Below the pieces are notes generated by a model, which did not search any database, was not told where the DNA came from, and was given only the letters and a program-made list of their open reading frames with translations. Of a DNA stretch of 64,000 nucleotides, positions 1 through 63,928 are shown one piece after another. This stretch comes from Armatimonadota bacterium (GTDB taxonomy: Bacteria; Armatimonadota; UBA5829; JAUSEB01). The DNA is taken from NCBI GenBank assembly GCA_030649165.1, contig JAUSGG010000034.1:4546-68545 (forward strand), in the 5' to 3' direction. Each line of letters starts with the position of its first letter. The first letter of the stretch is position 1. The translations under genes and the position numbers were made by a program.

Positions 1-110
1 AGCGGAGCGCCGGCGGAGTCGAGAAATCTGCTTTTTAGCGTGACGCAACCGGAAAAAGCAGATTCCTCCACTTCGGTCGGAATGACATTTCCTTGAAACT
101 GAACTCAATC
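1..110. mobile_element. Partial copy of the modular MITE-like element (other end outside window)
   Basis: Near reverse-complement copy of 32697-32808; ends in CTGAACTCAATC (99-110), a variant terminal repeat. TSD cannot be checked. Confidence 0.75.
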
Positions 111-7642: not shown

Positions 7643-7695
7643 GGGTTCAGGGGAGAACGCAGATGAACACAGATAAACACGGATGAACGCGGATA
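7643..7695. repeat. 10-bp periodic repeat element GGTTCAGGG(G/A)AGAAC + (AACRCRGAT.)n
   Basis: Copies at about 7643-7695, 7870-7925, 8675-8700 (short), 12128-12180, 16920-16996 (without the head) and 27038-27088. Confidence 0.85.
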
Positions 7696-7800
7696 GGGAG
7701 GGCAGCAGGATCCGGTCAATCACGAAAACACGAAAGGACGAAAAGTCGAAAGAGGGAGTGGAGATAGTCGGACGAAAACGGAGACCTTCGGTCGGCCATA

Positions 7801-7828
7801 GTGCGGGGTCTGAGACCCGCGCACAGCG
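7801..7828. repeat. REP-like palindrome GTGCGGGGTC.GAGACCCGCGCACAGCG
   Basis: Copies at 7801-7828, 18013-18040 and 27142-27171; two are preceded by GGAGACCTT(G)CGGTCG. Confidence 0.85.
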
Positions 7829-8650: not shown

Positions 8651-8757
8651 GGGGCCGCTCTTGTCGGTAGATGAGGTTCAGGGAAGAACGCGGATAAAGA
8701 CCGGAACCGGGATTAACCACGAAAGCACGAAGATGCGAAAATACGAAAGAATTATTT

Positions 8758-8789
8758 GGTCCCTCCAGGTAGGATACCTGGAGGGATAG
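8758..8789. repeat. REP-like palindrome TCCCTCCAGGTA-GGA-TACCTGGAGGGA + TAG
   Basis: Perfect 12-bp stem. Copies at 8758-8789 (+), 11448-11476 (-), half copy 11484-11497, 11739-11778 (+) and 25990-26029 (+, 2 mismatches). Confidence 0.9.
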
Positions 8790-8850
8790 AAAACTGGCAC
8801 AAAATCACAGGTGTAGACCGGCAGTCCCAACGGCATGACATAGACGATAA

Positions 8851-11217: not shown

Positions 11218-11496
11218 CGGGATATTGCCGCCGGTATCATAAAAGGCTATGTACGCGCCAGCTGGGAGCTCCCGTCTCGTGCCTACTGCCCATATTCTAT
11301 CACACGAGCAGCGCGTTTGGCTTTCGCAGCCGAGGGCTGTGGCTGTCCGGGAGGAGATCCTTCGTTCCTCAGGATGACGTCTTTCCGGCGTGGTGGTGTT
11401 GGGATGGGGGGCGTGTTTTCAGGCCGGGTAAAGCAGATTCCTCGTTCCTATCCCTCCAGGTATCCTACCTGGAGGGGCCTTCAACCTGGAGGGATA

Positions 11497-11718
11497 GAGT
11501 ACGTAGGCGTGAATCAAAACTCCGTGCTTCTCTCTGTAGAAGTCGAGGGCGGACAGCAGCAGCCGGGCGTTTTCCGGCTCTGCAAGTAGGGGCACGAACC
11601 GTTCAATCGTGGTAGTGATGAAGCAGAGATCGAAGCCCTCCGCTATGTTTTTCCAGTGTTTATACTGCGGCGTAGTGACTCGCCTCCCGACCGCCGATTG
11701 CTCGGCAAGTGGTTCCAT
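11497..11718 (-). pseudogene. N-terminal remnant of a REP-associated / IS200-like HUH tyrosine transposase (RAYT, Y1_Tnp)
   Basis: PQYKHW..CFITTTIERFVPLL....ARLLLSALDFYREKHGVLIHAYVL, then runs directly into a REP palindrome where the MPxHxH motif is expected. Confidence 0.7.
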
Positions 11719-12200
11719 AGGGGGTGTTCTATGTGCATACGGTTGGTCCCTCCAGGTAGGATACCTGGAGGGATAGAACCGATTCCACATTCCACACACC
11801 CCCTATATAGATGATGTGTATGTGGAATCAACCCATCGCGTCTGTTTGGCCGGGCGAAAGGAGACGGAAAGGCGTGTCCCGAAGCCTAGCAGATTCCTCC
11901 TCGTTCCTCGTCGGAATGACAACATACGGGCCTTTTTCAACAGGTCCTCGGTCCCCTTTTTCGCCCTTTTCCTTCACATTGGTGTTGCCGCCGACGCCGA
12001 TTAGGCGAACATGTCCTGGGAACGTTCGACCATGCAGCAGATAGCCGATCAGGTGGCGTGGGATGCGGAGTTCGTGCGAGTCTTGTACAAATCGCACGCG
12101 ATCTTGCAAATCGCGCCCGATCTCGGGTGGTTCAGGGAGGAACGCAGATGAACACAGATAGACACAGATGAACGCGGATGACTGGGATAGCTGACAGCTT

Positions 12201-15738: not shown

Positions 15739-15826
15739 TGGCTGCTCCGTTGATGGTTGATGGTTGAAGGTTGATGGTTGAACCTCCCCCTAACCCCCTC
15801 CCAGAGGGAGGGGGGATTACGTCATC

Positions 15827-17961: not shown

Positions 17962-18114
17962 TGGGGGGCCTTCCGAGGGAGTCGAAGGAGGGGAGAGCCG
18001 CGGTCGGTGATTGTGCGGGGTCGGAGACCCGCGCACAGCGACTGGACGGATAGGACGGATAGGACAAGTGGGACCTATGGGACGACATGGGCCGAATTGT
18101 TGCAAAGCTGTCCA

Positions 18115-20171: not shown

Positions 20172-20270
20172 GTATAACCTGGTTTGCGGGGGATTTGCAA
20201 ACGTCTTTAACGAGGAAAACAGGAAAGGTAGGAAAACGGGAAAGGGGATCGGATTGAGGTGAGGGGGCTG

Positions 20271-20414
20271 CCGCGGGAACTGACTTTGGTGAGATTCGAC
20301 TGCTTGGCAGTACTAGGCCGTTCCCGCACGATAGTGGTTGGGGCGGTGGGCGGTGCGGGAACTGACTTTGGTGAGATTCGATGACTTGGTTGTGCAAGAC
20401 CGTTCCCAGGATAG
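20271..20414. repeat. ~62-bp hairpin element GCGGGAACTGACTT-N-G(G/A)CCGTTCCC..GATAG (tandem pair)
   Basis: Copies at 20271-20334, 20355-20414, 31303-31367, 38247-38312 and 53133-53193. Confidence 0.85.
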
Positions 20415-22914: not shown

Positions 22915-23080
22915 TGGGACCTCCGAAACGCAATAATGCGGATAGCATCAAGTTTGAGGTTTGCCGGACGCGGGGCCGATTCCTTCACGGGCCTGCTCCG
23001 ATTGATCACGAAAGCGCGAAAGGGAACAGGAATCGGAGATCGAAAAGCGGCCCTTTTGCTCTATTGCGAAGGAGGCGCTC

Positions 23081-23284
23081 GGTTTCGGGATTTCCGGGTT
23101 GGAATGCGAGGTTGTGCTATGACCGCGGAAGTGTGAAGCCCAACCCTCAAATCCCGAAACAACGGCAAGGAGAGAGCTTTCACCCTCACCCTAACCCTCT
23201 CCCTCAAGGGAGAGGGGATTACGCTCGTCGTCTCCCGAAAGTGAGCGGCGAAGAGATACGTACTCACCAAGCCTGAACTCTTAC
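23081..23284. mobile_element. 5'-truncated copy of the modular MITE-like element
   Basis: Ends in CTGAACTCTTAC (23273-23284); interior matches 27461-27592 plus the ~85-bp module of 32821-32905. No left end found. Confidence 0.75.
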
Positions 23285-23319: not shown

Positions 23320-23368
23320 AGTGTGGTAAACGGCTCAGGCCGAATATCGCTGTATCGGAGGTATGTTA

Positions 23369-25081
23369 ATGTTTACGAACTCCCTCAAACTGAATCTGCT
23401 GACCGCAACGCTCGCTCTCGGCCTGGTCACGGCTGCTTCGGCAAGCATTTTAACCGATCTGCCGGGCGCGAAATCCTACCGCTCCGCCAGAATCTCCAGT
23501 TACGACAAGCGGGGCGGGAACGCAGACGGCTCTCAGGGCAATCCGCTTAAACCAGGACAAATCCGCACTATGGCGGAGATCAAAGGCCCTGGCCAGATTG
23601 CTCACATCTGGATTACCAAAGGCGGCGTGGATATCCGAGATATCATCATACGGATGTACTGGGACGGCGAGAATACCCCAAGCGTGGAGTGTCCTCTTGG
23701 CGAGTTCTTTGGCTTGGGTCACGGCAAGTATTACACCTTTGAGAGCCTGCCATTTGCCATTGGGAACGACGCCGGTCTCAACTGCTTCTTTCCCATGCCT
23801 TTCAAGAAAAGCGCGAAGGTGACGGTTCAGAATGTCGGCTCCAGTAACCTCGACATGTTCTACTACTATATCGACTACCAGGTCTTCGACGCTCCCCGCA
23901 ACGATCTTCTTTACTTCCACGCGCAGTATCGCCAGGAGAAGCCCGTCCTCTCGTCCGGGAACTACGTCATACTCGACGCCGCCGGACGCGGGCACTTCGT
24001 CGGGTGTTTCCTTTTCTGCCGGCAGAACGAGCCCGGGTGGTTCGGCGAAGGCGACGACATGATCTACATCGACGGCGCGAAACAGCCTACCCTGAACGGG
24101 ACCGGCACCGAAGACTATTTCTGCCACGCCTGGGGTTTCGCCAAAGGCGCCTCGACTGCCCGTTTCGGCGTTTGGAGCGAGAAGCCGTTCGAGGATATGG
24201 GGGATTACTCGGTCTACCGGTTCCATTTGGAGGACGCGATAGCTTTCAAGAAGTCGATCCGCGTGACCATCGAGCACGGGCACGCTAATAACCGTTCGGA
24301 TGACTTCTCATCCATCGCGTACTGGTACCAGACCGAGCCGCACAGCGCGTTCCCGAAACTCGCCGCCCCGTTCGACAGACGCTCCTCCGAGGAGCGCGGG
24401 AAAACGCTGCTCAAGGAGAAAAAGTTCGCGGAATACCGCGAAGCGCAGACACAGGTCGCTCGGCGCACACACTCGGATTACGTGAGGCAGACCGCCGAGT
24501 TCAATATCGCGGACAGCCGGGCCGCCGAGGTGGGCGGGCAGGCGGGGGTAGACGCACTCCTTGATCTCCTCGGCCCGTTCCCGAATCCCGATATTGCCAA
24601 AAGGGTGGCCGAGCGAGTGAAGGAGCTTGGCGGTGACGCGGCTGCAATTCCTCAATCCGGCGTCTATCACATTTTGGGCGTCTCCGACGGCGAGGGCGGC
24701 GTGGTAACGATGGACGGCAAGCGCTGCGTCAGGACGAACACGGCGAAAGGCAGCCGGTATATCTACTTCGACGTGGATAAGTCGATCCTGTCGCGGGGCG
24801 ACAAGCCCATCATGCTGGAGATAGAGTACTACGATGAGGGCAAGGCGGGAGATACTTTCCTCGTTGAGTATGATTCGGCGTTCACGAACGATGATGCGGA
24901 CAAATATCGCCCCACACCTGCGTTCATCAAACCGGGGAAGAAGGGTTGGAACTCCGCCGTGCTTTATCTGGAAAGAGCGAGGTTCGGCGGAAGGCAGAAC
25001 GGCGGCGCGGATTTCCGCGTCTACTCCGGCGGCGACACCGACGAATACGTCAGCAGTATCAAGGTGATCTCGAAGCAGTAG
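23369..25081 (+). CDS. Secreted DUF2961 / GH172 glycoside hydrolase with a C-terminal beta-sandwich domain
   Basis: Signal peptide; GPGQIAHIW, IRMYWDGE..PSVECPLGEFF, WFGEGDDMIYIDG, GTGTEDYF, IEHGHAN, SIAYWYQ. Confidence 0.88.
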   Translation: MFTNSLKLNLLTATLALGLVTAASASILTDLPGAKSYRSARISSYDKRGGNADGSQGNPLKPGQIRTMAEIKGPGQIAHIWITKGGVDIRDIIIRMYWDGENTPSVECPLGEFFGLGHGKYYTFESLPFAIGNDAGLNCFFPMPFKKSAKVTVQNVGSSNLDMFYYYIDYQVFDAPRNDLLYFHAQYRQEKPVLSSGNYVILDAAGRGHFVGCFLFCRQNEPGWFGEGDDMIYIDGAKQPTLNGTGTEDYFCHAWGFAKGASTARFGVWSEKPFEDMGDYSVYRFHLEDAIAFKKSIRVTIEHGHANNRSDDFSSIAYWYQTEPHSAFPKLAAPFDRRSSEERGKTLLKEKKFAEYREAQTQVARRTHSDYVRQTAEFNIADSRAAEVGGQAGVDALLDLLGPFPNPDIAKRVAERVKELGGDAAAIPQSGVYHILGVSDGEGGVVTMDGKRCVRTNTAKGSRYIYFDVDKSILSRGDKPIMLEIEYYDEGKAGDTFLVEYDSAFTNDDADKYRPTPAFIKPGKKGWNSAVLYLERARFGGRQNGGADFRVYSGGDTDEYVSSIKVISKQ

Positions 25082-25139
25082 GTTTGTAGGTTTGTAGGGT
25101 TGAGAGGTTCCAAGGTCTAGAGGGTTCCGGAGTTTTGAG

Positions 25140-25985: not shown

Positions 25986-26061
25986 AACAACGGTTGGTCC
26001 CTCCAGGTAGGGTGCCTGGAGGGATAGAATATGAGAGTCTGCACAGTTGGAGAGATTTTCC

Positions 26062-27033: not shown

Positions 27034-27218
27034 GGCTCGGTTCAGGGAAGAACACAGAACACGGATAAACACGGATGAACGCGGATGGGATCGAACGGAG
27101 GGCCGGAATGGGGAGTCGAAGGAGACCTTGCGGTCGCGGACGTGCGGGGGTCGGGAGACCCGCGCACAGCGGGTTGTGTAACGGGAACCTCCATTCGCGT
27201 CTCGCTCAGATAGCCCTC

Positions 27219-27898
27219 ATGGTCTTTCTCCTGATTGGAATTGCCGCGGGCTATTGATCCACGCAGGTTCCTCCAAGCAAGCCGAGTCAGGTTTCCGCGG
27301 CCAAACTCACGCCTGAGGAACTGGGGCTTATTAAAGCGCAGACAGAGAACAACAAAGCACAAGCTCAGTAAAATAAGTTACTAGTCCAAGAGTTAGAGGA
27401 AAAGCCCAAGCCTAAGCCCCCCAAGCCGACCATCACGCGGAAAGTATTGGCGCTTTTAGCGTAAGAGTTCAGAAATGGAGAGAACTTTCACCCTCACCCT
27501 AACCCTCTCCCTCAAGGGAGAGGGGATTACGCTCGTCGTCTCCCGAAAGTGAGCAGCGAAGAGATACGTACTCACCAAGCCTGAACTCTTACCTTTTAGC
27601 AGGTATTCCGGGATGGGGCATGTTTATTGCTGCTATCGTTGCTATTGTCACTTTTGGCTTGAACTATAGGGTCACGCTAAGAAGCCAAAAGGACACACAG
27701 TTTTATGAAGCCCTCAAGCGTTTTGGTGATGAGGACAGTCCCTGCGTTCGTTGCAGCGCCGCGGGTCTCTTGGCGCAACTGGGTTCCACTCCGGTGTGGG
27801 AACCCAAGTTATGGCGGCGACCAATCGTTGGGTGGTTTCGGACATCTCGCTCACACTATCAAACTGCTTTTGATCAGCTCTTTGCGGGCTCAGCGTGA
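27219..27898 (+). pseudogene. Degraded membrane-anchored protein gene interrupted by a MITE
   Basis: One frame from ATG 27219 with stops at 27255 and 27369. Removing 27461-27600 rejoins KVLALLAGIPGWGMFIAAIV..FYEALKRFGDEDSP.VR.SAAGLL in frame. Confidence 0.75.
27461..27592. mobile_element. MITE-like element, 132 bp
   Basis: Perfect TIR GTAAGAGTTCAG / CTGAACTCTTAC; TSD CTTTTAGC at 27453-27460 and 27593-27600. Confidence 0.92.
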
Positions 27899-28774: not shown

Positions 28775-28879
28775 AGCTCAAGTTTACCAGATGCGGTCTT
28801 ATCACGAAAGGACGAAAATGCGAAGGGGAGTTCGCGGGGAAGCTGTCAGCCGTCAACGGTCAGCCGACGCCTGGGTGTG

Positions 28880-28919
28880 CTTCGGCAGCGTCGCTGCCGC
28901 TCTGCTACCGAAGGATCGG
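28880..28919. repeat. 40-bp REP-like unit CCGATCCTTCGGTAGCAGAGCGGCAGCGACGCTGCCGAAG
   Basis: Identical at 28880-28919 (-), 53686-53725 (+) and 56647-56686 (+). Confidence 0.9.
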
Positions 28920-29091
28920 AAGGGGGAGGAATTGGGCGGATCGGTCGGATCGGACTGATCGGACTGATCAACCGCCAACCAATAACCAACAACTAACAAC
29001 CACCCATCACCCTCCGATGTTTTGGCTTGCGTAATGGCTGGGTAATCAGAGAGCAAGCCAGTTTAGCCGAATTTGGAGGAAGGTGACGGTT

Positions 29092-38509: not shown

Positions 38510-40501
38510 ATGCACAAAGCTCGCAAGGCGCTTGGCTTGGCGCCCTGGCCCAACAACGTAAGACTGACCGGCGGGGGGTTGACGCTTCCCGACCGGTCTA
38601 TTGTTTCTTATGGCCCCGCGGGAAGGACCATGCGTTTCGCGGCGGAGGCAATCGCCAGGGCGATTCGCGCGACCGCAAGGCAGGCGGAACTCAGATACGT
38701 AGACGATAGAGACGGCTGCTATCTGCTGGTGACGGGCTTCGCCGGACGCTACCCGCGACTTTCTCCTCCCGCCGGCGCTGAGGCTTACGAAATACGGATA
38801 GCGGATGACGTGGAGGTTCGCGCGGAAACGCCCACGGGCGCGTTTTACGGAGCGCAGACTCTGGTCCAAGCGATATCGGCGGGGCAGGGGACTCTGCCGA
38901 AGTGCGAAATAGGGGACCGTCCCAGGATAGCCTTCCGAGGCGTCATGGCCGATCTTGCGCGCTTGAAAGAGCGGGACGACTATTATTTCAAGCTCATCGA
39001 CTTCATGTCTCGCTATAAGTTCAATGCGATCTTCCTGCACCTGACAGACGATCAGGGCGCGCCGATAGAGCTGCAATCGCACCCCAAGTTGACCAGCGCC
39101 CATCCGCTCACGCGCGAGACGATCGAGCGGCTGATCGACTACGCCGCGCAACGCCACATCGACGTGATTCCGGAGATCGAGGTCTGGGGCCACGCGGGTT
39201 GGGTGACCAAACATCCGGAATACGCCGACATCGCCGAGGAAGGCCCGGACCTCTGCACCACAAACCCCAGGACCTGGCAGTTGATCGGAGACGTGCTCGA
39301 TGATATCTGCTCGCTCTTCTCCAGCAAGTACATTCACGGCGGCAGCGACGAGGCCCATTTCGGAAGGTGTCCGAAGTGCAAAGCAGAGGTGGAAGCGCAT
39401 GGAGAGGACACCTTAGTCGGTAATCATTTGAAGCGCACCGCGGAGCTTATCCGTGAACGGGGCAGAGTTCCAATCCTCTGGGCCGATATACTCCTGAAAT
39501 ACCCCGGCTCGGCGGATATTGTGCCCAAGTATGCAATTCTCAACCACTGGGACTACGCCGCCAGTCCTTCGGACGAGCCGGTGAAGCTGCTGAAGAGCAA
39601 GGGGTTCACCGTTCTGGGCGGGTCCGGGATCGTCTTCGGCAGTAGGGCGGTTCTGCCGAAAGGGGACGCGCTGCGGAATGTCGAGAATTTCGGACAGATA
39701 ACTCGCAAGCACGGGATTATGGGGATCAACAACACCATCTGGATCCCGCAGCGGTACGTTTCCGACACGCTTTGGTATGGCATAGCCCTGGCCGGGGAAG
39801 CATCGTGGTCCGGCGCAAAGCCGGATCGTGCGGGCTTTACTGTTTCGTTCTTCAAGTCGTTCTTTGGAATCGACGCCGGCCCGGACCTGGTCGAAGCCAT
39901 AGCGACCCTGCACGAGCTGCCGGCCTACGTCGGCGACAGCGTTATGGGCGTGTGGCAGGACAAGAAGGAGTTCGATGAGCTTGCGACGCCGGAGCAGCAT
40001 TCGCAGAAAGAGGCGTATCTGTCGTCGGCGCTGGATGTCCTGGCGGTCGTTCGGAAATACCGGGCGAGTGTTGTCAGGCGGAGATGGGAGTACGACGCTT
40101 TGGTCTACGCGGCGCGGATGAAACGGCACATAGGAGAACGAAGCGCCGCTCCGGGCCGGCTGGTCGCCGCAATCGAATCGGCCAGGAAACTCGCCGCGGA
40201 GGGAAAGGCCGCCGCGGCCGCCGGGAAGCTCCTGGCGCAGGCCCAGTATCTGGCGCGTCTGTCTGAACAGGAGAGAAGAATGGCGTCGGCCACCGAGAAG
40301 TATTGGGACAGGTGGCGGTACGCCGAGGATCCCAGGAAGGCCGAGCCGTTCCAGAACACATTGAACGCCTTCAAGACGAGCGCCGGTTACCTCAACACGC
40401 TGGCCGCGCGGCTGACCGAAGCGGCGAGGGAGTTGAGTCAGGGGAGGCAGCCGGATTGGGAGCGCGTGAGTGATGAGCGCTCAGTGCTGAGTGCTGAGTG
40501 A
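38510..40501 (+). CDS. GH20 family glycoside hydrolase (beta-N-acetylhexosaminidase-like)
   Basis: RGVMAD, HLTDDQG, IPEIEVWGH, catalytic HGGSDE; no obvious signal peptide. Confidence 0.85.
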   Translation: MHKARKALGLAPWPNNVRLTGGGLTLPDRSIVSYGPAGRTMRFAAEAIARAIRATARQAELRYVDDRDGCYLLVTGFAGRYPRLSPPAGAEAYEIRIADDVEVRAETPTGAFYGAQTLVQAISAGQGTLPKCEIGDRPRIAFRGVMADLARLKERDDYYFKLIDFMSRYKFNAIFLHLTDDQGAPIELQSHPKLTSAHPLTRETIERLIDYAAQRHIDVIPEIEVWGHAGWVTKHPEYADIAEEGPDLCTTNPRTWQLIGDVLDDICSLFSSKYIHGGSDEAHFGRCPKCKAEVEAHGEDTLVGNHLKRTAELIRERGRVPILWADILLKYPGSADIVPKYAILNHWDYAASPSDEPVKLLKSKGFTVLGGSGIVFGSRAVLPKGDALRNVENFGQITRKHGIMGINNTIWIPQRYVSDTLWYGIALAGEASWSGAKPDRAGFTVSFFKSFFGIDAGPDLVEAIATLHELPAYVGDSVMGVWQDKKEFDELATPEQHSQKEAYLSSALDVLAVVRKYRASVVRRRWEYDALVYAARMKRHIGERSAAPGRLVAAIESARKLAAEGKAAAAAGKLLAQAQYLARLSEQERRMASATEKYWDRWRYAEDPRKAEPFQNTLNAFKTSAGYLNTLAARLTEAARELSQGRQPDWERVSDERSVLSAE

Positions 40502-40564
40502 CCTCCCCCTAACCCCCTCCTATGAGGAGGGGGATTTGGGCGTTTTTTCCTTCAAGCCTGCTTT

Positions 40565-46929: not shown

Positions 46930-49584
46930 TCAAGAGCCAACAGCGTACCGAATGCCCGGCAAGGCGTTGCCGGCGCTGTCGCAGAGCCTGGCTGAGATTC
47001 CCCAGCCGTTAGTCCCCTGCGTGACCTTGATGAGCAGACAGTTCCAGTCTCTGTGGAGGGTCACAGGAATCCTGTCCTGATCGCGAGTCCACGAGCGATA
47101 GACGTCGTTCAGCCAGACCATCTGGCTGTTATGGTAGACTTTCACACCGTCGTTGCTGCCTATCCGCAGTTCGGCGGTCTGATCGGCGGGAGAGTAGATG
47201 TAGGCGTTCACATAGCCGAGGCCTTCCGAGGGAGCGCCATAGGGGCCGGCCAGGTCTACGTATCCATCCGGTTCGGCTGTCACGGGCGACCACTGGTATC
47301 TTCCGCTAACCATTCCGATCTTCGGCCAGGTGGTCGCCTCGCCGCCGAGGTAGTCGGCGGCCATGCGGGTGGTTCTGTCGAGATGACCGTAGAATCCGTT
47401 CGCCAGCCAGTCGAATATGAACGGAGCGGGCTGGTCCGTTGTCGTCGACTGACTCAACCCGTCTTCATAGTTCCAATTGCCACATACGTCCACGGCTACG
47501 ATCTTATAGACGTAGTTCGTGTTTGGCGTCAGGTTGGTCAGAGTGACCGCGTGGTCCTCCACCAGTTGCGGGGTGGCGACAATGGTGTTCGTGGTAGTCG
47601 TTCCATAGTCGATCCGGGTAGTTGTCGGTTCGCTGGTTTTCCACGTGACGACCATCCGGCTGCCGGTCACTGCCTCAACCTGCACGTCGCTGATGATCGG
47701 AGGCGTGGTGTCCCCAGTGTCGGCAGCGACGTTCACTCCCGGCAGAGCTTTTCCGGCCGAATCGCAGACTTTGGCGACGAGCGCCCAGCCGCCGGTGTTC
47801 TGCGATACTTTGAAGATCAGCCGGTTCCAGCCCGCGATCAGATGGACGGGCATCTTATCCTGGTCGGGCGTGACGGTTCTGCCAACGTCCTTGGTCCAGA
47901 TGTTCACGCCATTCGCCCAGACTTTGACACCATCGTTGCTTCCGAGCCACAACTGGGCGTCCTGTTCGGACGGAGAATAGACGTACGCGCAGGCGTAAGC
48001 GGCGCAATAAGTGCGGGTTGATCCGTAGACGGACAGGAAGCTCAGAATATCCGTGGAACTCTGCTTAAACGTCCACGTCTTCGCCCCCTGGACTTGCCCG
48101 GCGCGCGGCGCCGCGTATTCCTCGCCGCCGAGGTAGTCCTGCGACAGTCTGGTGGCGCTGCTGATATTGGAGTAATAGCCGTTCAACAGCCAGGTCCTTA
48201 TGTAGCCGGCGGTTGTCGCGCTTCCCGCGGTCGTGACAAAGGTGGACGAAGGCGCGCTCGACGTGTTTCCATCGGCATCCCGCGCGTCCACAACGAAATG
48301 GTACGTCGTGCCGGCGGAGAGGCCGGTCAACGTGATAGAATGCTGCGTCCGCAGAGTAGTGTCGCTCGACGAAGATCCCAAGGCCGTGGTCGCGCCATAG
48401 CGCACGGTGGCCGTGGTCAACTCATCAGTCGTGCAGTTGATCGTGGCAGAACTGGTTGTAATGCCCGTCACAGTGACGATAGTGATCGTGGGCGCCCCGC
48501 TTGGGGGATTTGTGGAAGTAGTAACGCCCGGAATGGGATTGCCCGCTGAGTCGCAGACCCTCGTCGCAAGCGCCCAATTGCTCGTGTTTTGCGCTACTTT
48601 GAGAAGCAGCCGGTTCCAGCCGGGGGCAAGATGGGCAGAGACCTTATCCTGATCGGGGGTGCAGCCCCTCAGGACATCGTTGGTCCAGATGTTCGCGCCG
48701 TTCAGCCAGACCTTTACGCCATCGTTACTTCCGAGCCACACCTGCGCGTTGAGGTCAGCCGGTGAGTAAACGTAGGTGAAGGCGTAAACGGCGCAGTATT
48801 GCGACGTGGACCCATATACGGTAAGGAAATCGAGGTGGTCCGCTGAGTTCTGCTTCAGCGTCCACGTTTTCCCCGCCTGGGACTGCCCCGCGCGCGGAGC
48901 GGCGCTCGTCTCACCGCCAAGGTAGTCGGTCGAGAGCCTGGTTGTCCTGTCGGTGTTTGAATAATAGCCGTTCAGGAGCCACTCTCGCACGAACGCCATC
49001 GGTGGGGGATCGCCCGGGGTGATAGTGTACGATCCCTGCGCCTTTTTCGTAGCGTCGAACCTCGACGTCGCCATCAGCGCAAACGAGGCCGGAACGGAAG
49101 CGGCTGTCGGGATCGCGGCAACCAGGAAGCACTTATAGGAGGCTCCCGCGGCGACAGAGGGTGTGGAGGTTACGACGGTCGTCTCCGTCGATTGACGAAC
49201 ACCGTCGCCGTTGGCGTCGGCGACCATTCTCGGCGACCACGAGGTATCGCCTGTGACGGCAAGTCCGAAAGTATCGGACCCGTTGCCGGCGTTTTTGACG
49301 GCTACAGCGACGCAGCCATCAGACCCCGCTTGCGCGGTGACGTTTCCGGTCGCGGGCGTTAGCTGTACGCCCGCCACCTGACCTACCGTTACTGTAACGG
49401 TGTTCGAAGTGGACGCAGGCATGCGGGTTCCTGCGCTGTCGTTGTAGTTCGCGATGCTTGAGGTCGAAATCTGCGCGCCTGAAGGGGTGAGGGCGTAGGC
49501 GCTGACCGCGAGACCGCAGCAGGCGAATAGGAGGCCTACCGCGGATGACAATGCTCGCGCCAAGTGAAACTGTTTCTGGTTCAT
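46930..49584 (-). CDS. Secreted protein with three PA14/galactose-binding-like repeats and FN3-like spacers
   Basis: Signal peptide; three ~160-aa repeats WL.NG.Y..DYLGGE..GSNDGVKV..W....KV.Q.T..W....CDSAG; DUF11-like N-terminus. Confidence 0.8.
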   Translation of the reverse strand: MNQKQFHLARALSSAVGLLFACCGLAVSAYALTPSGAQISTSSIANYNDSAGTRMPASTSNTVTVTVGQVAGVQLTPATGNVTAQAGSDGCVAVAVKNAGNGSDTFGLAVTGDTSWSPRMVADANGDGVRQSTETTVVTSTPSVAAGASYKCFLVAAIPTAASVPASFALMATSRFDATKKAQGSYTITPGDPPPMAFVREWLLNGYYSNTDRTTRLSTDYLGGETSAAPRAGQSQAGKTWTLKQNSADHLDFLTVYGSTSQYCAVYAFTYVYSPADLNAQVWLGSNDGVKVWLNGANIWTNDVLRGCTPDQDKVSAHLAPGWNRLLLKVAQNTSNWALATRVCDSAGNPIPGVTTSTNPPSGAPTITIVTVTGITTSSATINCTTDELTTATVRYGATTALGSSSSDTTLRTQHSITLTGLSAGTTYHFVVDARDADGNTSSAPSSTFVTTAGSATTAGYIRTWLLNGYYSNISSATRLSQDYLGGEEYAAPRAGQVQGAKTWTFKQSSTDILSFLSVYGSTRTYCAAYACAYVYSPSEQDAQLWLGSNDGVKVWANGVNIWTKDVGRTVTPDQDKMPVHLIAGWNRLIFKVSQNTGGWALVAKVCDSAGKALPGVNVAADTGDTTPPIISDVQVEAVTGSRMVVTWKTSEPTTTRIDYGTTTTNTIVATPQLVEDHAVTLTNLTPNTNYVYKIVAVDVCGNWNYEDGLSQSTTTDQPAPFIFDWLANGFYGHLDRTTRMAADYLGGEATTWPKIGMVSGRYQWSPVTAEPDGYVDLAGPYGAPSEGLGYVNAYIYSPADQTAELRIGSNDGVKVYHNSQMVWLNDVYRSWTRDQDRIPVTLHRDWNCLLIKVTQGTNGWGISARLCDSAGNALPGIRYAVGS

Positions 49585-52890: not shown

Positions 52891-53048
52891 GTAAGAGTTC
52901 AGAAATGGAGAGAACTTTCACCCTCACCCCATTCGCTGCGCTCAGGGCAAGCTCTAACCCTCTCCCTCAAGGGAGAGGGGATTACGCTCGCGTTCTCCCC
53001 GGGGGTGAGCAGCGAGAAGAGTCGTACCGACCATTCCTGAACTGTTAC
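52891..53048. mobile_element. MITE-like element, 158 bp
   Basis: TIR GTAAGAGTTCAG / CTGAACTGTTAC; TSD GTCGGAGG at 52883-52890 and 53049-53056. Confidence 0.92.
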
Positions 53049-53304
53049 GTCGGAGGAGGGCGGAGGTATGAGGTATGAGTCATCCGTGCCGGTGCGCGAC
53101 ACGCATGGGGATGGAATCGGTTGCGGTCCGGTGCGGGAACTGACTTCGATGATGTCTGAGACCTGATTGCACAAGGCCGTTCCCGCGGGATAGGTAAGGC
53201 GGATCGATTATAAGTGAGGGAGTTGGGCTTTGGTTTTGCCGCCTGGTTCAAACCCCATGTGTCAGGGAAACCTGATAATGAGAATAGTACGGAGGTCAAG
53301 TCCA

Positions 53305-53577
53305 ATGTCTGCCGTTACGGACCTGCTGCGAACAGTAAGAATCAAGGTTGGCCTGCTCGCCGACCACCGAGTCAGCGGGCTGGACGTGAATGTGGATGTG
53401 GACGGAGGAGTCGCGCGACTGTCCGGAACAGTTCAGAGCGAGGAGCAGAAGCAAACGGCCGAGGAAATAGCCGCCTCGATCGAGGGTGTGGTGGAGATCG
53501 AGAACGACATTGTTGTGGCTTCATCTGAGGAGCGGACGGAGAGTTTAGAGGAGGGCGGAGCCTGCTTTGGGTACTGA
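53305..53577 (+). CDS. Single BON domain protein
   Basis: GGAGG RBS; LDVNVDVDGGVARLSGTV....A..IA..IEGV..IENDI; no signal peptide. Confidence 0.85.
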   Translation: MSAVTDLLRTVRIKVGLLADHRVSGLDVNVDVDGGVARLSGTVQSEEQKQTAEEIAASIEGVVEIENDIVVASSEERTESLEEGGACFGY

Positions 53578-53595
53578 GACGGTTGACGGACGAAC

Positions 53596-54109
53596 GTAAC
53601 AGTTCAGAAATAGCAAGTACGTGCCGCTGAGTGTCATTTCGAGCATCCGACCTCGACACACGGGGTTATTTCGGAAAGAAACCAACCGATCCTTCGGTAG
53701 CAGAGCGGCAGCGACGCTGCCGAAGGACGCACAAGTACGATCCCCGGTGTTTCGAGATTTGAGGGTTGGGCTTCATACTCGCGCAGTTACAGCACAACCT
53801 CCCATCCCAACCCGGAAATCCCGAAACCGGGCGCTTCCTTCGTGCAGCATTGCCTAAATATCGTCGCATAGTCCGGAACCTCCCCCTAACCCCCTCCTAA
53901 GAGGAGGGGGGAATACTCCCTCTCCTTCCAGGAGAGGGTTGGGGTGAGGTTATTACGTCATCGAACTTATGAACTGAGGTACTTAGGAACGGAGCGTTAG
54001 CGGAGTCGAGAAATCTGCCTTTGAGCGTGGCGCAACCGGATAAAGCAGATTCCTCACTACGTTCGGAATGACGTTGCCCGATAGGCGCTCACCATTTCTG
54101 AACTCTTAC
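53596..54109. mobile_element. Composite MITE-like element, 514 bp
   Basis: 16-bp TIR (15/16) GTAACAGTTCAGAAAT / ATTTCTGAACTCTTAC; TSD GGACGAAC at 53588-53595 and 54110-54117. Confidence 0.92.
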
Positions 54110-54119
54110 GGACGAACCC

Positions 54120-54148: not shown

Positions 54149-54230
54149 TGGCTTGGAAGAAAAAGGGCGGGGACGGGTGCGTCCCGCAGCCCTTTTTGCG
54201 CATAGAAGGAAGGATGGCGCGGCCGGCCAA

Positions 54231-56512: not shown

Positions 56513-56715
56513 GACAGAGTTCTGAGCGCTGAGGTATGAGGCATGAGGTATGAGTGACCTCCCCCTAACCCCCTCCTGGGAGGAGGGGGGACTCCCTCTC
56601 CTCTTAGGAGAGGGCAGGGGTGAGGTCTTGCTTGGTGATTGCACTTCCGATCCTTCGGTAGCAGAGCGGCAGCGACGCTGCCGAAGGACGCAAGGGGCGC
56701 AATGGAAGGTGTTGT

Positions 56716-61215: not shown

Positions 61216-62169
61216 TTGACACCGAAGGAAAGAGCAATCGCGGCTTTTGAGCTAAGAGAGCCGGATGATATCGTGCCGACTTTTGAGCTGCAATTTCAGC
61301 TTTCCGAGGCGCTGCTGGGCAAGAAACATGCGACGCAGCGGGAGTTGGACGAAGCTTCGCCGGGGGAGAAAGACCGACTCCTGAGCATTGAAGCGGAGTT
61401 GTACGTCGAGGAAGCGGAGAGGCTGGATTATTCCATTATCTCCGTAAGCTTCGGTCCTCACAATTCAGAAGACCTGCTGCAGACCATACGCCGCATTTGC
61501 CGACTGGTGGGTGAGAAGTACCTGATCGCGGTCCTGCTCGACGGGACAATGGGCATCCCGAACGGACAAACAATGATGACGCTTTCGATGCGTCTGACGG
61601 ACGACGCGGACGGCCTTAAAGCGGAACAGGACCGCAATGTGGACGGAGCTATCGAATACGCAAAACGTCTTGCCGACGCCGGCGTTGGTGTGGCATTGAT
61701 GGTTGCCGACTATTGTTTCAACGACGGACCTTTTCTGTCACCCGCGATGTTCCGCGAGTTCGTCACGCCGTATCTGGCCCGACAAGTTTCCGAGTTGAAG
61801 AAACTGGGACTGTACACGGTCAAGCACACGGACGGCAACATAATGCCCATCCTCGACCAACTCGTCGAATCGGGGGCCGACGCCCTGCATTCCATAGACC
61901 CGCAGGCCGGCGTGGACTTGAAGGAGGTCAAACGCCTGGTCGGGGACCGGATCGCGCTTTGCGGGAACGTGCGCTGCGATTTTCTGCAATCCAGAACAGT
62001 TCAGGACGCGGTCACGGACGCCGAACGTTCTCTGCGGGACGGCATGCCGGGAGGCGGCTACTTCTTCTGCACGAGCAATACGCCGTTCATTGGAATGCCG
62101 CTGGAGAATTATCTGGCGGCGCTTGACGTAAGGCGCCGGTTGGGATGGTACAAGAGGGAAGGGTTATAG
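61216..62169 (+). CDS. Uroporphyrinogen decarboxylase / MtaA-CmuA family protein
   Basis: GGAGG RBS before TTG 61216; ADDY-like VADY, FLSPAMFREFVTPY, KHTDGN, GN, GGGYFF...N. Confidence 0.8.
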   Translation: MTPKERAIAAFELREPDDIVPTFELQFQLSEALLGKKHATQRELDEASPGEKDRLLSIEAELYVEEAERLDYSIISVSFGPHNSEDLLQTIRRICRLVGEKYLIAVLLDGTMGIPNGQTMMTLSMRLTDDADGLKAEQDRNVDGAIEYAKRLADAGVGVALMVADYCFNDGPFLSPAMFREFVTPYLARQVSELKKLGLYTVKHTDGNIMPILDQLVESGADALHSIDPQAGVDLKEVKRLVGDRIALCGNVRCDFLQSRTVQDAVTDAERSLRDGMPGGGYFFCTSNTPFIGMPLENYLAALDVRRRLGWYKREGL

Positions 62170-62282
62170 GGTTATAGGTTTGTAGGGTTTTGAGGTTACG
62201 ACGGCCTTTGGTTTGGCCCCTATCACCCTATAGCCCTATGAACCTGCAATGCTACAACCCGAAACCGGCCGACTGTCAGAAG

Positions 62283-62344: not shown

Positions 62345-63928
62345 ATGTGTGAGAGTGATAACAGCTTGAATGTCAAGGAGTCGGGCGCGCCTGCCTCGGC
62401 GACGCCATGCAGCGAGAGCGAGCAGCTATACCGTCTGCTGGCCGAGAACGTGACAGACGTTATCTGGACTACTGACCTCAACCTTCAGTTGACCTACTGC
62501 AGTCCTTCTGTGTACGGGCTGCGAGGTTACACTGCCGAGGAGACCATGGGACAAACCATCGACGAGATAATGACTCCAGACTCCATCGCTGTAGCTTTGG
62601 AGGCGCTTAGGGAGGCGTTGGCGTTGGAAGATCGGGGCCGTCCGGATCAGTCCGACCATCTGACGCTTGAGCTGGAACACACCTGCAAAGACGGTTCGAC
62701 GGTTTGGGCCGAAACGAGCGTGCGGCTGTTGAGGGACGCGGCGAGAGATATGGCCGGCCTCGTGGGAGTGACCCGGGATATTTCAGAGCGAAAGCGGGCC
62801 GATGACGCGCTCCGACAGAGCGAGGCCAGGTACCGGAGTATTTTCGACGCCATAGCGGACGGTATCTGTGTGTTGAGCCCGGACGGTATCATCCTCGACG
62901 CAAATACGGCCATGTGCGATATGCTCCGCTGGCCGCTGGAATGCATGCTCGGCAAGTATATCCGGGACATCGTAGACGAGCGGTTTGTCAGCGACGCGGA
63001 CGAGTTCTTCAGTCGCGTCAAGCGTTCGGGTGAGGTTCACTATGAGGTGATCACCGCGCTTGACGACGGCTCGGTTATCGCTTCGGACGTTCACGCCAGG
63101 CATCATTCATATCAAGACAAACCCGCCATACTGGTCGTAGTTCGCGATGTCACCGAGCGTAAGCAGGCCCTCGACGAACTGCGAAAACGCGCCGACCGGC
63201 TGCAGGCCCAACATGCCAGGCTAAAGGCCGCGACCGTGCAGAAAGCCAGTTTCTTCGCCAGTATGTCGCATGAACTCCGCACGCCGATGACTTCCATCAT
63301 CGGCTTTACGGAACTTCTGCTGGACGACCTTGAGGATCCGGTTTCGGCGGGTCAGCGCGAGCTGCTCCTCAAGGTTTCGCAGAACGGGCGTCGGCTGCTG
63401 GGTATGGTCAACGATCTGCTCGACCTGTCCCGCCTCGAGTCAAGAAGAATGACCCCCGTGGTGTCCGAAGTCGACCTCGGTTTGCTGATGGAGCAGATCG
63501 TGGCCAACATGCGCCCCCTTGCGAAAGACAAAGACCTGGAAATCGTCGTGACCAACGGCGGTCCGACGACCAATGTCTACACGGACGAACAGAAGTTGAG
63601 CCAAATCCTCGTCAATCTGATCAGCAACGCAATAAAGTTCACGCCATCAGGACGCGTGACCGTGGCCGCGGAAGCGACGGGATCACAGATTCAGGTCTCT
63701 GTTTCAGATACGGGACTTGGCATACCCAGGTCCGAGCATCGCAAGATATTCGACGAATTTCACACCATGGCCCAACGCGGCAGGCAAAAGATGCCCGGCA
63801 CGGGGTTGGGACTCGCGATAACGAAAAAGCTGTGCGATCTGCTTGGCGGCAAGATAAATGTTGTCAGCGAGCCGGGGAAAGGCTCGACATTCACCGTTCT
63901 GCTGCCGAATAGCAGGCCGGAAGGCTGA
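62345..63928 (+). CDS. Cytoplasmic PAS-PAS sensor histidine kinase
   Basis: Two PAS/PAC domains, H-box MSHELRTP, NLISNAIKFT, DTGLGI, GTGLGL; no TM segment. Confidence 0.95.
   Translation: MCESDNSLNVKESGAPASATPCSESEQLYRLLAENVTDVIWTTDLNLQLTYCSPSVYGLRGYTAEETMGQTIDEIMTPDSIAVALEALREALALEDRGRPDQSDHLTLELEHTCKDGSTVWAETSVRLLRDAARDMAGLVGVTRDISERKRADDALRQSEARYRSIFDAIADGICVLSPDGIILDANTAMCDMLRWPLECMLGKYIRDIVDERFVSDADEFFSRVKRSGEVHYEVITALDDGSVIASDVHARHHSYQDKPAILVVVRDVTERKQALDELRKRADRLQAQHARLKAATVQKASFFASMSHELRTPMTSIIGFTELLLDDLEDPVSAGQRELLLKVSQNGRRLLGMVNDLLDLSRLESRRMTPVVSEVDLGLLMEQIVANMRPLAKDKDLEIVVTNGGPTTNVYTDEQKLSQILVNLISNAIKFTPSGRVTVAAEATGSQIQVSVSDTGLGIPRSEHRKIFDEFHTMAQRGRQKMPGTGLGLAITKKLCDLLGGKINVVSEPGKGSTFTVLLPNSRPEG

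Follow-up and report, generated by a model that had tools for sequence, protein, structure and literature searches.

A stretch of 64,000 nt of DNA from an Armatimonadota bacterium (contig JAUSGG010000034.1, positions 4,546 to 68,545; hereafter the window) contains a 514-bp element, A, which is a miniature inverted-repeat transposable element (MITE), that is, a non-autonomous, non-coding DNA transposon with terminal inverted repeats (TIRs) and an 8-bp target-site duplication (TSD). Its interior is a mosaic of hairpin modules, one of which, the P unit, matches the BoxC/PIT/TM_ECO motif of Escherichia coli. MITE transposition has multiplied BoxC/TM copies in this genome, and the same modules also occur free in the window, with no TIRs or TSDs of their own. 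The best explanation of these observations, which we regard as moderately probable, is a MITE mobilized in trans with a layered interior, in which TSD-less modules hitch-hike with the carrier.

A MITE family with variable interiors

The census of modules and MITEs covered the window and the loci fetched from relatives (designated by L numbers). A scan with the 16-bp TIR of element A, GTAASAGTTCAGAAAT, with three mismatches allowed, returned eight occurrences in the window compared with 0.37 expected, and none of 100 shuffled controls reached eight. The eight ends make up four complete elements (132-514 bp), each with a perfect 8-bp TSD; the far end of element D is degenerate. Two further copies are partial.

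Element A: 53596-54109, 514 bp; TSD GGACGAAC
Element B: 27461-27592, plus strand, 132 bp; two termini and one BoxC/TM (P) unit; TSD CTTTTAGC
Element C: 52891-53048, plus strand, 158 bp; B-like, with a 25-bp insertion in the TM-unit spacer; TSD GTCGGAGG
Element D: 32697-32983, minus strand, 287 bp; termini, X core and G module, without H48 or P pair; TSD CGAAGACG on the element strand, CGTCTTCG as read on the plus strand
Element E: 23067-23284, plus strand; partial, B-type; sole remaining TIR at 23269-23284
Window-start copy: 1-110, plus strand; right part of a further D-like copy, the rest cut off by the window edge

The excess of TIRs, the perfect TSDs, the lack of a coding signal and the lack of a transposase among the scanned open reading frames (ORFs) together identify these elements as MITEs. 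Pfam scans that took in almost every long ORF of the window, 23363-25081 and 62345-63928 excepted, found no transposase, and a search of 5.8 billion proteins gave no homologue of a stop-free frame of 96 amino acids running through D. The termini of the family share the motif GTAASAGTTCAG, and the outermost 18 bases of the right end of A are also the left ends of B and C. Elements of the B/E type are opposite to A in orientation, the left end of B being the reverse complement of the right end of A. B is 98.3% identical to E over 116 nt and 90.8% identical to C, and all three, partial E included, consist mainly of termini and one P unit at the same internal position; E carries a G module (23067-23165 in a BLAST search of A against the window) in place of one 16-bp TIR. 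Among the fetched relatives the TIR was found once, in L122. A search for the 16-mer in a genome contig collection gave 106 loci, all of them chance matches, and the 18-mer gave 12 matches in metagenome contigs, approximately the chance estimate and none related (L112 is an unrelated satellite).

Elements C and A flank a small BON-domain gene (53230-53577) in opposite orientation, which is the layout of a composite transposon, and their outer ends are identical 18-mers, GTAAGAGTTCAGAAATGG. Each has its own, separate TSD, however, which shows that C and A were inserted independently.

The layout of A was drawn from the BLAST search of A against the window and from alignments of A, D and the window start (alignment A1) and of B, C and E (alignment A2).

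53588-53595: left TSD of A, GGACGAAC, identical to 54110-54117
53596-53632, plus strand: left terminus, 16-bp TIR GTAACAGTTCAGAAAT and subterminal region, common to all copies
53633-53684, plus strand: X-left, GTCATTTCGAGC..GGAAAGAAACCA, left half of the inner core common to A and D
53685-53741, plus strand: 57-bp segment, H48 hairpin core (53686-53731) and 10 unique nt, absent from D
53742-53831, plus strand: G module, hairpin GTTTCGAGATTT..AAATCCCGAAAC between CCCC and GGGG, common to D and E
53841-53984, plus strand: 144-bp segment with an inverted BoxC/TM pair (P pair) at 53878-53950, absent from D
53985-54072, plus strand: X-right, inverted doublet ending GCAGATTCCTC..CGGAATGAC, common to D and the window start
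54073-54109, minus strand: right terminus, 16-bp TIR GTAAGAGTTCAGAAAT on the minus strand, common to all copies
54110-54117: right TSD of A, GGACGAAC

The X-left segment is 92% identical to D (32908-32958) and is also kept in L109 (9861-9912), and X-right is 92% identical to D and 88% identical to window positions 1-86. By BLAST, the G match to D and E extends over 53742-53842, the P pair matches 56557-56626, and the X unit, GCAGATTCCTC..GGAATGAC, recurs at 11889-11920. Two indels separate A from D. That of H48 is a clean 57 bp without microhomology in alignment A1, and the larger one, of 144 bp, comprises the 73-nt P pair with 37 and 34 nt on its sides, flanks that occur nowhere else in the window; where A has this segment, D and L109 read CTTCCTTAGGAG without interruption. 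The initial annotation of this DNA had described a 514-bp element stringing together several modules, a 287-bp element with a subset of them and elements of 132 and 158 bp carrying mainly the P module, and the alignments bear this description out in coordinates and motifs: D has X and G only, and B and C have one P unit each.

Each interior module is predicted to fold by itself: z lies between -2.7 and -4.7 for H48, G and the P pair, and A as a whole has z = -7.2. The H48 hairpin (46 nt) has z = -3.05, and the P pair folds as a three-way hairpin (z = -4.61), an architecture that recurs in a free pair at 56552-56626. Across eight copies of the G stem the 12-bp outer stem is invariant and three inner pairs show compensatory changes. 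In Rfam, no family reached its gathering threshold in the window, and A gave only chance hits far below threshold.

Two other interpretations of the interior were rejected. The 144-bp segment has a TIR-like right end, ACTTATGAACTGAGGTAC, but it has no left TIR, and it is bounded by only a CTT repeat with no 8-bp TSD; its reading as a nested MITE of the B type is not supported. The G module of E appeared inverted relative to that of A, which would have implied an independent insertion, but the two have the same polarity once the orientation of the elements is considered.

BoxC/TM motifs as MITE cargo and as free repeats

BoxC/PIT/TM motifs have been known since the 1990s and have near-identical sequences in distant bacteria, and we know of no function or dispersal route assigned to them. 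Earlier work on the BoxC/PIT/TM_ECO motif is said to be that of Hoyne et al. in 2000. The P unit, labeled by its sequence CCCTAACCC, has a triplex-like mirror-repeat layout, and both P units of A match the TM regular expression. The intrastrand triplex pattern defined for BoxC/PIT/TM_ECO is CCCTCNCCC-N3-6-GGGNGAGGG-N3-GGGNGAGGG (Holder et al. 2015, PMC4666352), which has three strict matches in the window (B, E and 139-173) and eight with 8-nt blocks. The unit of B (27490-27524, minus strand) is identical to E. coli K-12 TMECO no. 2 at 35/35 bases, and E also holds this exact 35-mer. The P unit of B matches 5401 of 5426 complete E. coli genomes with 95.7-97.7% identity over 43-46 nt, at a median of 16 places per genome. 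Because of the pattern match and the 35/35 identity, the P unit is assigned to BoxC/TM, and the candidate explanation that it is a lineage-specific repetitive extragenic palindromic (REP) sequence was rejected. Judged by its letters, the unit is the BoxC/PIT/TM_ECO motif, with a pattern compatible with triplex formation.

The same cargo, a single TM unit at the same internal position, is present in B, C and E at three different loci, with TSDs that differ between B and C. The cargo thus spreads with the MITE, since a module that has come to lie inside a MITE would be copied with it, and this would account for the same BoxC/TM unit in all three. Such carriers are essentially absent from unrelated contigs: among 121 BoxC sites in other taxa there was one weak case with TIR and TSD compared with none of 402 controls, in a test that finds B and C. 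Carriage by a MITE is therefore a lineage-specific route rather than a general answer to how BoxC spreads.

The window holds 13 BoxC/TM units in 64 kb. Six of these are of one variant, here called the C-variant, in which a T-A stem pair has become C-G and the third-strand T has become G.

C-variant units: 15783-15814, 35085-35116, 38341-38372, 40502-40533, 53879-53910 and 56558-56589

In these units the stem CCCTCTCC/GGAGAGGG is replaced by CCCCCTCC/GGAGGGGG and the third block GGGTGAGG by GGGGGAGG, so that all three strands are altered in the same triad. The change keeps the triads compatible, yet it is a single inherited event. The TM unit of element C is interrupted by 25 bp, CCATTCGCTGCGCTCAGGGCAAGCT (52929-52953), with no second copy in the window; these part the third-strand block from the hairpin and should abolish the predicted triplex potential of this unit. 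In IMG/VR, the 19-nt P core occurs in more than 120 contigs of 36-73% GC, nearly always with the hairpin preserved and with a loop that varies.

The TM census of Holder et al. covered 262 proteobacterial genomes, and in E. coli the sites had neither promoter nor terminator activity, showed raised local indel rates and were described also as inverted pairs; transposase or integrase remnants and mobility functions were never found near them (PMC4666352). The copies in the window resemble those of E. coli in their three-block pattern, the exact 35-mer, inverted pairs, intergenic position and local indels nearby. They differ in that the host belongs to the Armatimonadota, in their much greater density, in the presence of the C-variant and in that some copies lie inside MITEs flanked by TSDs.

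Modules of A also stand alone in the window:

56552-56626, plus strand: free inverted BoxC/TM pair in the nadA-nadC spacer, no TIR or TSD
56647-56692, plus strand: free H48 in the nadA-nadC spacer, 46/46 identical to the H48 of A, no TIR or TSD
28874-28919, minus strand: free H48, 43/46 identical to the H48 of A, no TIR or TSD
11889-11920, plus strand: free X unit, GCAGATTCCTC..CGGAATGAC, no TIR with TSD
15777-15821, plus strand: free single BoxC/TM unit of the C-variant, no TIR or TSD
35079-35123, 35161-35206, 38335-38379, 40496-40540 and 134-179: other free single BoxC/TM units

The initial annotation had placed X (11889-11920) and H48 (28874-28919 and 56647-56692) outside TIRs, and both indeed lie there. 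It had also allowed that such modules might all be eroded MITEs. No TIR core was found within 250 bp of any free module except the unit at 134-179, which lies 30 nt outside the window-start element, and none has a TIR with a TSD in the test that recovers B and C, which argues against such an origin.

Free modules extend to the relatives. G is free three times in L107 and once in L109, where its 12-bp ends stay the same in surroundings that are unrelated; the radA leader of L107 and L108 has gained a BoxC/TM unit; and X occurs in L109 and L122. These free G, P and X copies come without the TIR of A. The nadA-nadC spacer, the site of H48 and the P pair in the window, measures only 43 bp in L108, and in L107, L123 and L109 it contains quite different repeats. 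The X unit is present in ten IMG/VR contigs, G and H48 patterns had no matches in IMG/VR, and a literature search with the X-unit sequence returned unrelated primer matches only.

Several further observations concern these modules and their surroundings. In L107 (1110-1570; also L108 1-270), three tandem units of approximately 186 bp each combine a duplicate of the upstream gene's 3′ tail with a G hairpin, and the gene caller has placed ORFs over these units. In the unrelated IMG/VR contigs L249 and L254, the X unit GCAGATTCCTC..GGAATGAC lies 12 nt past an apparent tRNA 3′ end (..GGTTCGATTCTAGCCCCTGCCACCA), and this tRNA-like feature is about 30 nt upstream of the X-unit match. Spacers of the window are rich in short tandem repeats with periods of 7, 8, 9 and 10 nt, with a stop codon in each unit and stops in all frames (40470-40500, 56524-56556, 35060-35082, 38412-38445, 28931-28972, 7650-7700, 12135-12185, 27050-27095, 25079-25117, 62159-62205 and 181-230). 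They often begin at the stop codon of a gene, directly 5′ of a BoxC/TM unit, and analogous but different tandem repeats occupy the same places in relatives (L108 3655-3690, L107 4950-4985 and L122 6070-6110).

Proposed order of assembly and competing explanations

The order in which the interior was assembled can be approached through L109, a locus whose RadA is 80% identical and in which a diverged element of the D type, oppositely oriented, lies upstream of radA. On its element strand this copy reads ..GTCATTCTGAGC..GGAAATCC-GCCCC-AAAA-GGGGG-AGCTTCCTTAGGAG.. and lacks H48, G and the P pair; the CCCC..GGGG of the G site is present and encloses only AAAA, a 4-nt loop. Element D reads ..GAAACCA-CCCC-[G]-GGGG-CGCTTCCTTAGGAG.., and in A the H48 segment is added ahead of CCCC, with the 144-bp segment lying between CTTCCTT and AGGA. 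Because L109 lacks all three modules at the same junctions, gain is favored over a series of deletions, and parsimony favors a stepwise gain in which the backbone would have existed before any of the three. The H48 of A is fully identical to the free copy 2.5 kb away and the backbones of A and D are approximately 92% identical, which points to a recent gain of H48 in A.

The proposed sequence would begin with two X units in inverted arrangement as the core, common to A, D and the window-start copy. The G hairpin would then have entered the loop of a small CCCC/GGGG hairpin before A and D separated. In the lineage of A only, the 57-bp H48 segment would have been gained, and the 144-bp segment with its BoxC/TM pair would have entered the TTA loop of a small TTCC/GGAG hairpin. 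Since the modules fold alone, exist outside MITEs and have no TIR or TSD of their own, they may reach new sites by a route without target duplication, dependent on hairpins or single strands, either resembling that of Y1 transposases or by template switching. Whether TIR-bounded elements shuttle modules or modules accumulate inside MITEs had been posed as an alternative at the outset, and each side finds some support without excluding the other. The shared P unit of B, C and E at three loci speaks for shuttling, as do the X of A, D and the window start and the G of A and D, and the H48 and P-pair segments of A, at sites where D and L109 are contiguous, speak for accumulation.

An opposite history would make the long, A-like form ancestral, with short forms that lost hairpin segments and with free modules that are unrelated common motifs. 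Small intergenic deletions that remove flanks as well are reported to concentrate at BoxC/TM loci (PMC4666352), 71 nt of the 144-bp indel are non-repeat flank and its bounds show CTT microhomology, and E has lost one TIR, all of which would fit such losses. The L109 element, however, is contiguous at both junctions with only a 4-nt loop at the G site, the 57-bp indel has no microhomology, and the H48 of A is identical to a free copy in spite of the 8% divergence of the backbone from D; free modules moreover show no TIR or TSD traces and are present in relatives where the TIR was found only once. A deletion series is thus considered quite unlikely. Another explanation holds that the modules are immobile and that the mosaics go back to exchange between dispersed hairpins, be it illegitimate recombination, gene conversion or replication template switching, the interiors of MITEs being tolerant of such changes. 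The extra unique sequence and missing TSDs of the inserted segments agree with this, and two of the three insertion points are hairpin loops. At a distance of 2.5 kb the nadA-nadC spacer holds both modules specific to A, the P pair and an identical H48, which fits local copying. In five related genomes this spacer is filled with completely different repeats. Yet module boundaries are fairly constant across copies, the order of H48, G and P pair in A compared with P pair and H48 in the spacer means that no single patch was copied, and the 12-bp ends of G are kept in the unrelated contexts of L107 and L109; we hold this explanation to be unlikely.

A third possibility is that selection maintains the repeats as cis-acting structures, for instance hairpins for RNA stability or termination, or sites for DNA-structuring proteins, and that A is mainly a regulatory region of radA. 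It would suit the position of most free P units directly after stop codons, the compensatory changes in the G stem, the coupled alteration of stem pair and third strand in P variants and the location of A beside the radA promoter. It is very improbable, as no Rfam family matches, BoxC/PIT has no promoter or terminator activity in E. coli (PMC4666352), the closest relatives keep the same radA promoter without A, and perfect TSDs mark the carriers as transposed DNA.

Against these alternatives stands the layered MITE with hitch-hiking modules, and several observations weigh against it in turn. The four complete and two partial copies all come from one window, and the outgroup that sets polarity, L109, is a diverged paralogue in another genome and not an orthologous empty site. 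The segments specific to A hold extra unique sequence (10 nt for H48; 37 and 34 nt for the P pair), and a CTT repeat of 3 nt borders the 144-bp indel, so that deletion or recombination fits them as well as insertion does; with the reported proneness of BoxC/TM loci to deletion (PMC4666352), these are the grounds on which both explanations are retained. Within the window G is never free, all three copies lying in or at MITEs; neither the scanned ORFs of the window nor the fetched relatives contain an IS66-type transposase; and the only remnant of a REP-associated tyrosine transposase (RAYT) in the window is flanked by hairpins of another family, R, and not by P, H48, G or X.

11422-11718, minus strand: truncated Y1/RAYT gene that ends just short of the HUH motif and comprises the N-terminal part only
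11445-11479 and 11745-11782: R hairpins flanking the RAYT remnant, inverted, GGTCCCTCCAGGTAGGATACCTGGAGGG

This remnant bears on the proposal that the element links REP sequences with MITEs as two normally separate mobility systems, which could not be established: P is BoxC/TM, and no RAYT gene is tied to P, H48, G or X. On structural grounds the term "REP-like" is fair for H48, the P pair and the X doublet, which are short, extragenic, imperfect palindromes and inverted doublets. Membership among REP sequences or REPINs, their paired forms, is judged by whether the repeats flank a RAYT gene (Bertels and Rainey 2011, PMC3116915), and within the window P, H48, G and X do not. By the same standard it is the R hairpins, rather than the modules of A, that are REP candidates, and the remnant and its hairpins likely represent a REP/RAYT system separate from the MITE modules. 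The remnant matches NCBIfam NF047646 (REP-associated tyrosine transposase) with E = 6e-4, well below the family cutoff; full-length relatives (P0122, P0124, P0134 and others) carry PF01797, and a word-index protein search with the fragment returned only itself. The modules of A are like the REP, bacterial interspersed mosaic element (BIME) and REPIN-RAYT systems in being short extragenic imperfect palindromes, often paired as inverted doublets with a longer hairpin fold, without target duplication, with a RAYT remnant in the same window, and unlike REPIN-RAYT in that none of them is linked to a RAYT. R hairpins, GGTCCCTCCAGGTAGGATACCTGGAGGGATAGAA, are found around the remnant (11422-11782) and also at 8756-8791 and 25996-26042.

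Genomic setting, related systems and significance

The host was identified as an Armatimonadota bacterium, and the best named relatives of its RadA are from Armatimonadota, the closest being 86% identical. The neighbors of A are housekeeping genes, a BON-domain protein gene followed by radA-nadA-nadC-birA-gpmI. The right TSD of A ends 2 nt before a -35 box, TTGAAC (54120), of the promoter-like site TTGAAC-17-TAGAAT, which is conserved ahead of radA in relatives that lack A; A has inserted 10 bp upstream of the radA -35 box. The DNA from this promoter to the start codon holds a conserved GC-rich hairpin with a T-run after it (window 54160-54200, L107 2515-2550 and L123 3040-3075), which looks like a leader or attenuator.

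The transposase that moved A was presumably encoded outside the window, acting in trans, and an enzyme of the ISBst12/IS66 type is the best guess. Members of the IS66 family of insertion sequences (ISs) have GTAA termini and 8-bp direct repeats (PMC12898284, PMC12888890), and ISDge4, of the ISBst12 group in this family, has the TIR GTAACTGCTCAGCA and an 8-bp direct repeat (PMC12898284). The TIR of A is identical to that of ISDge4 at 11 of 14 positions, and its GTAA ends and 8-bp TSD are as in the IS66 family, which is suggestive of such a parent as far as termini can tell. No parent IS with these TIRs was found in the window or the fetched relatives. With MITEs of the ISBst12 group the elements share short length, lack of coding sequence, GTAA TIRs, 8-bp TSDs and dispersed copies, and they differ in having an interior that is a stack of unrelated hairpin repeats and not a deleted transposase gene.

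Other repeats were noted in the window. A dispersed family of approximately 100 nt, CGCGGGAACTGACTT..GGCCGTTCCCGCGGGATAGG, has five copies, two of them in tandem (20258-20407, 31268-31368, 38213-38313 and 53095-53194), and no Rfam match; a smaller dispersed repeat, GGAGACCTTCGGTCGG..GTGCGGGGTCTGAGACCCGCGCACAGCG, occurs at 7780-7828, 17992-18040 and 27121-27169; and an ORF with an fn3 domain (46930-49584) contains three internal repeats of approximately 785 bp, starting at 46952, 47735 and 48524 and 61-73% identical.

Mosaic intergenic repeats are familiar from the BIMEs of E. coli, the neisserial intergenic mosaic elements (NIMEs) and the modular BOX element of pneumococci, and Elhai et al. 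in 2008 reportedly described small dispersed repeats nested in cyanobacterial MITEs. Like BIMEs, NIMEs and BOX, the elements described here combine short modules that also stand alone, and like the cyanobacterial repeats they nest small repeats within other repeats; unlike BIMEs, NIMEs and BOX, this mosaic has transposon TIRs and TSDs at its borders, and BoxC/TM is among its modules. A composite MITE with a pan-bacterial BoxC/TM cargo is a new form of repeat kinds that are already known.

Identical BoxC copies in MITEs with perfect TSDs are direct evidence, for this genome, of multiplication driven by a carrier, and the composite MITE shows one concrete route by which BoxC copies are multiplied. 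Its nested architecture is a small, datable record of the gain of intergenic hairpin repeats and suggests hairpin loops as preferred points of entry. A broader reading in two tiers, with TSD-less hairpin repeats (BoxC/TM, H48 and G) entering hairpin loops of MITEs by preference and TIR/TSD transposition then multiplying them, is offered only tentatively, as a possibility we rather doubt. If true, it would provide the first documented vehicle for BoxC/TM, a motif conserved from E. coli to the Armatimonadota.

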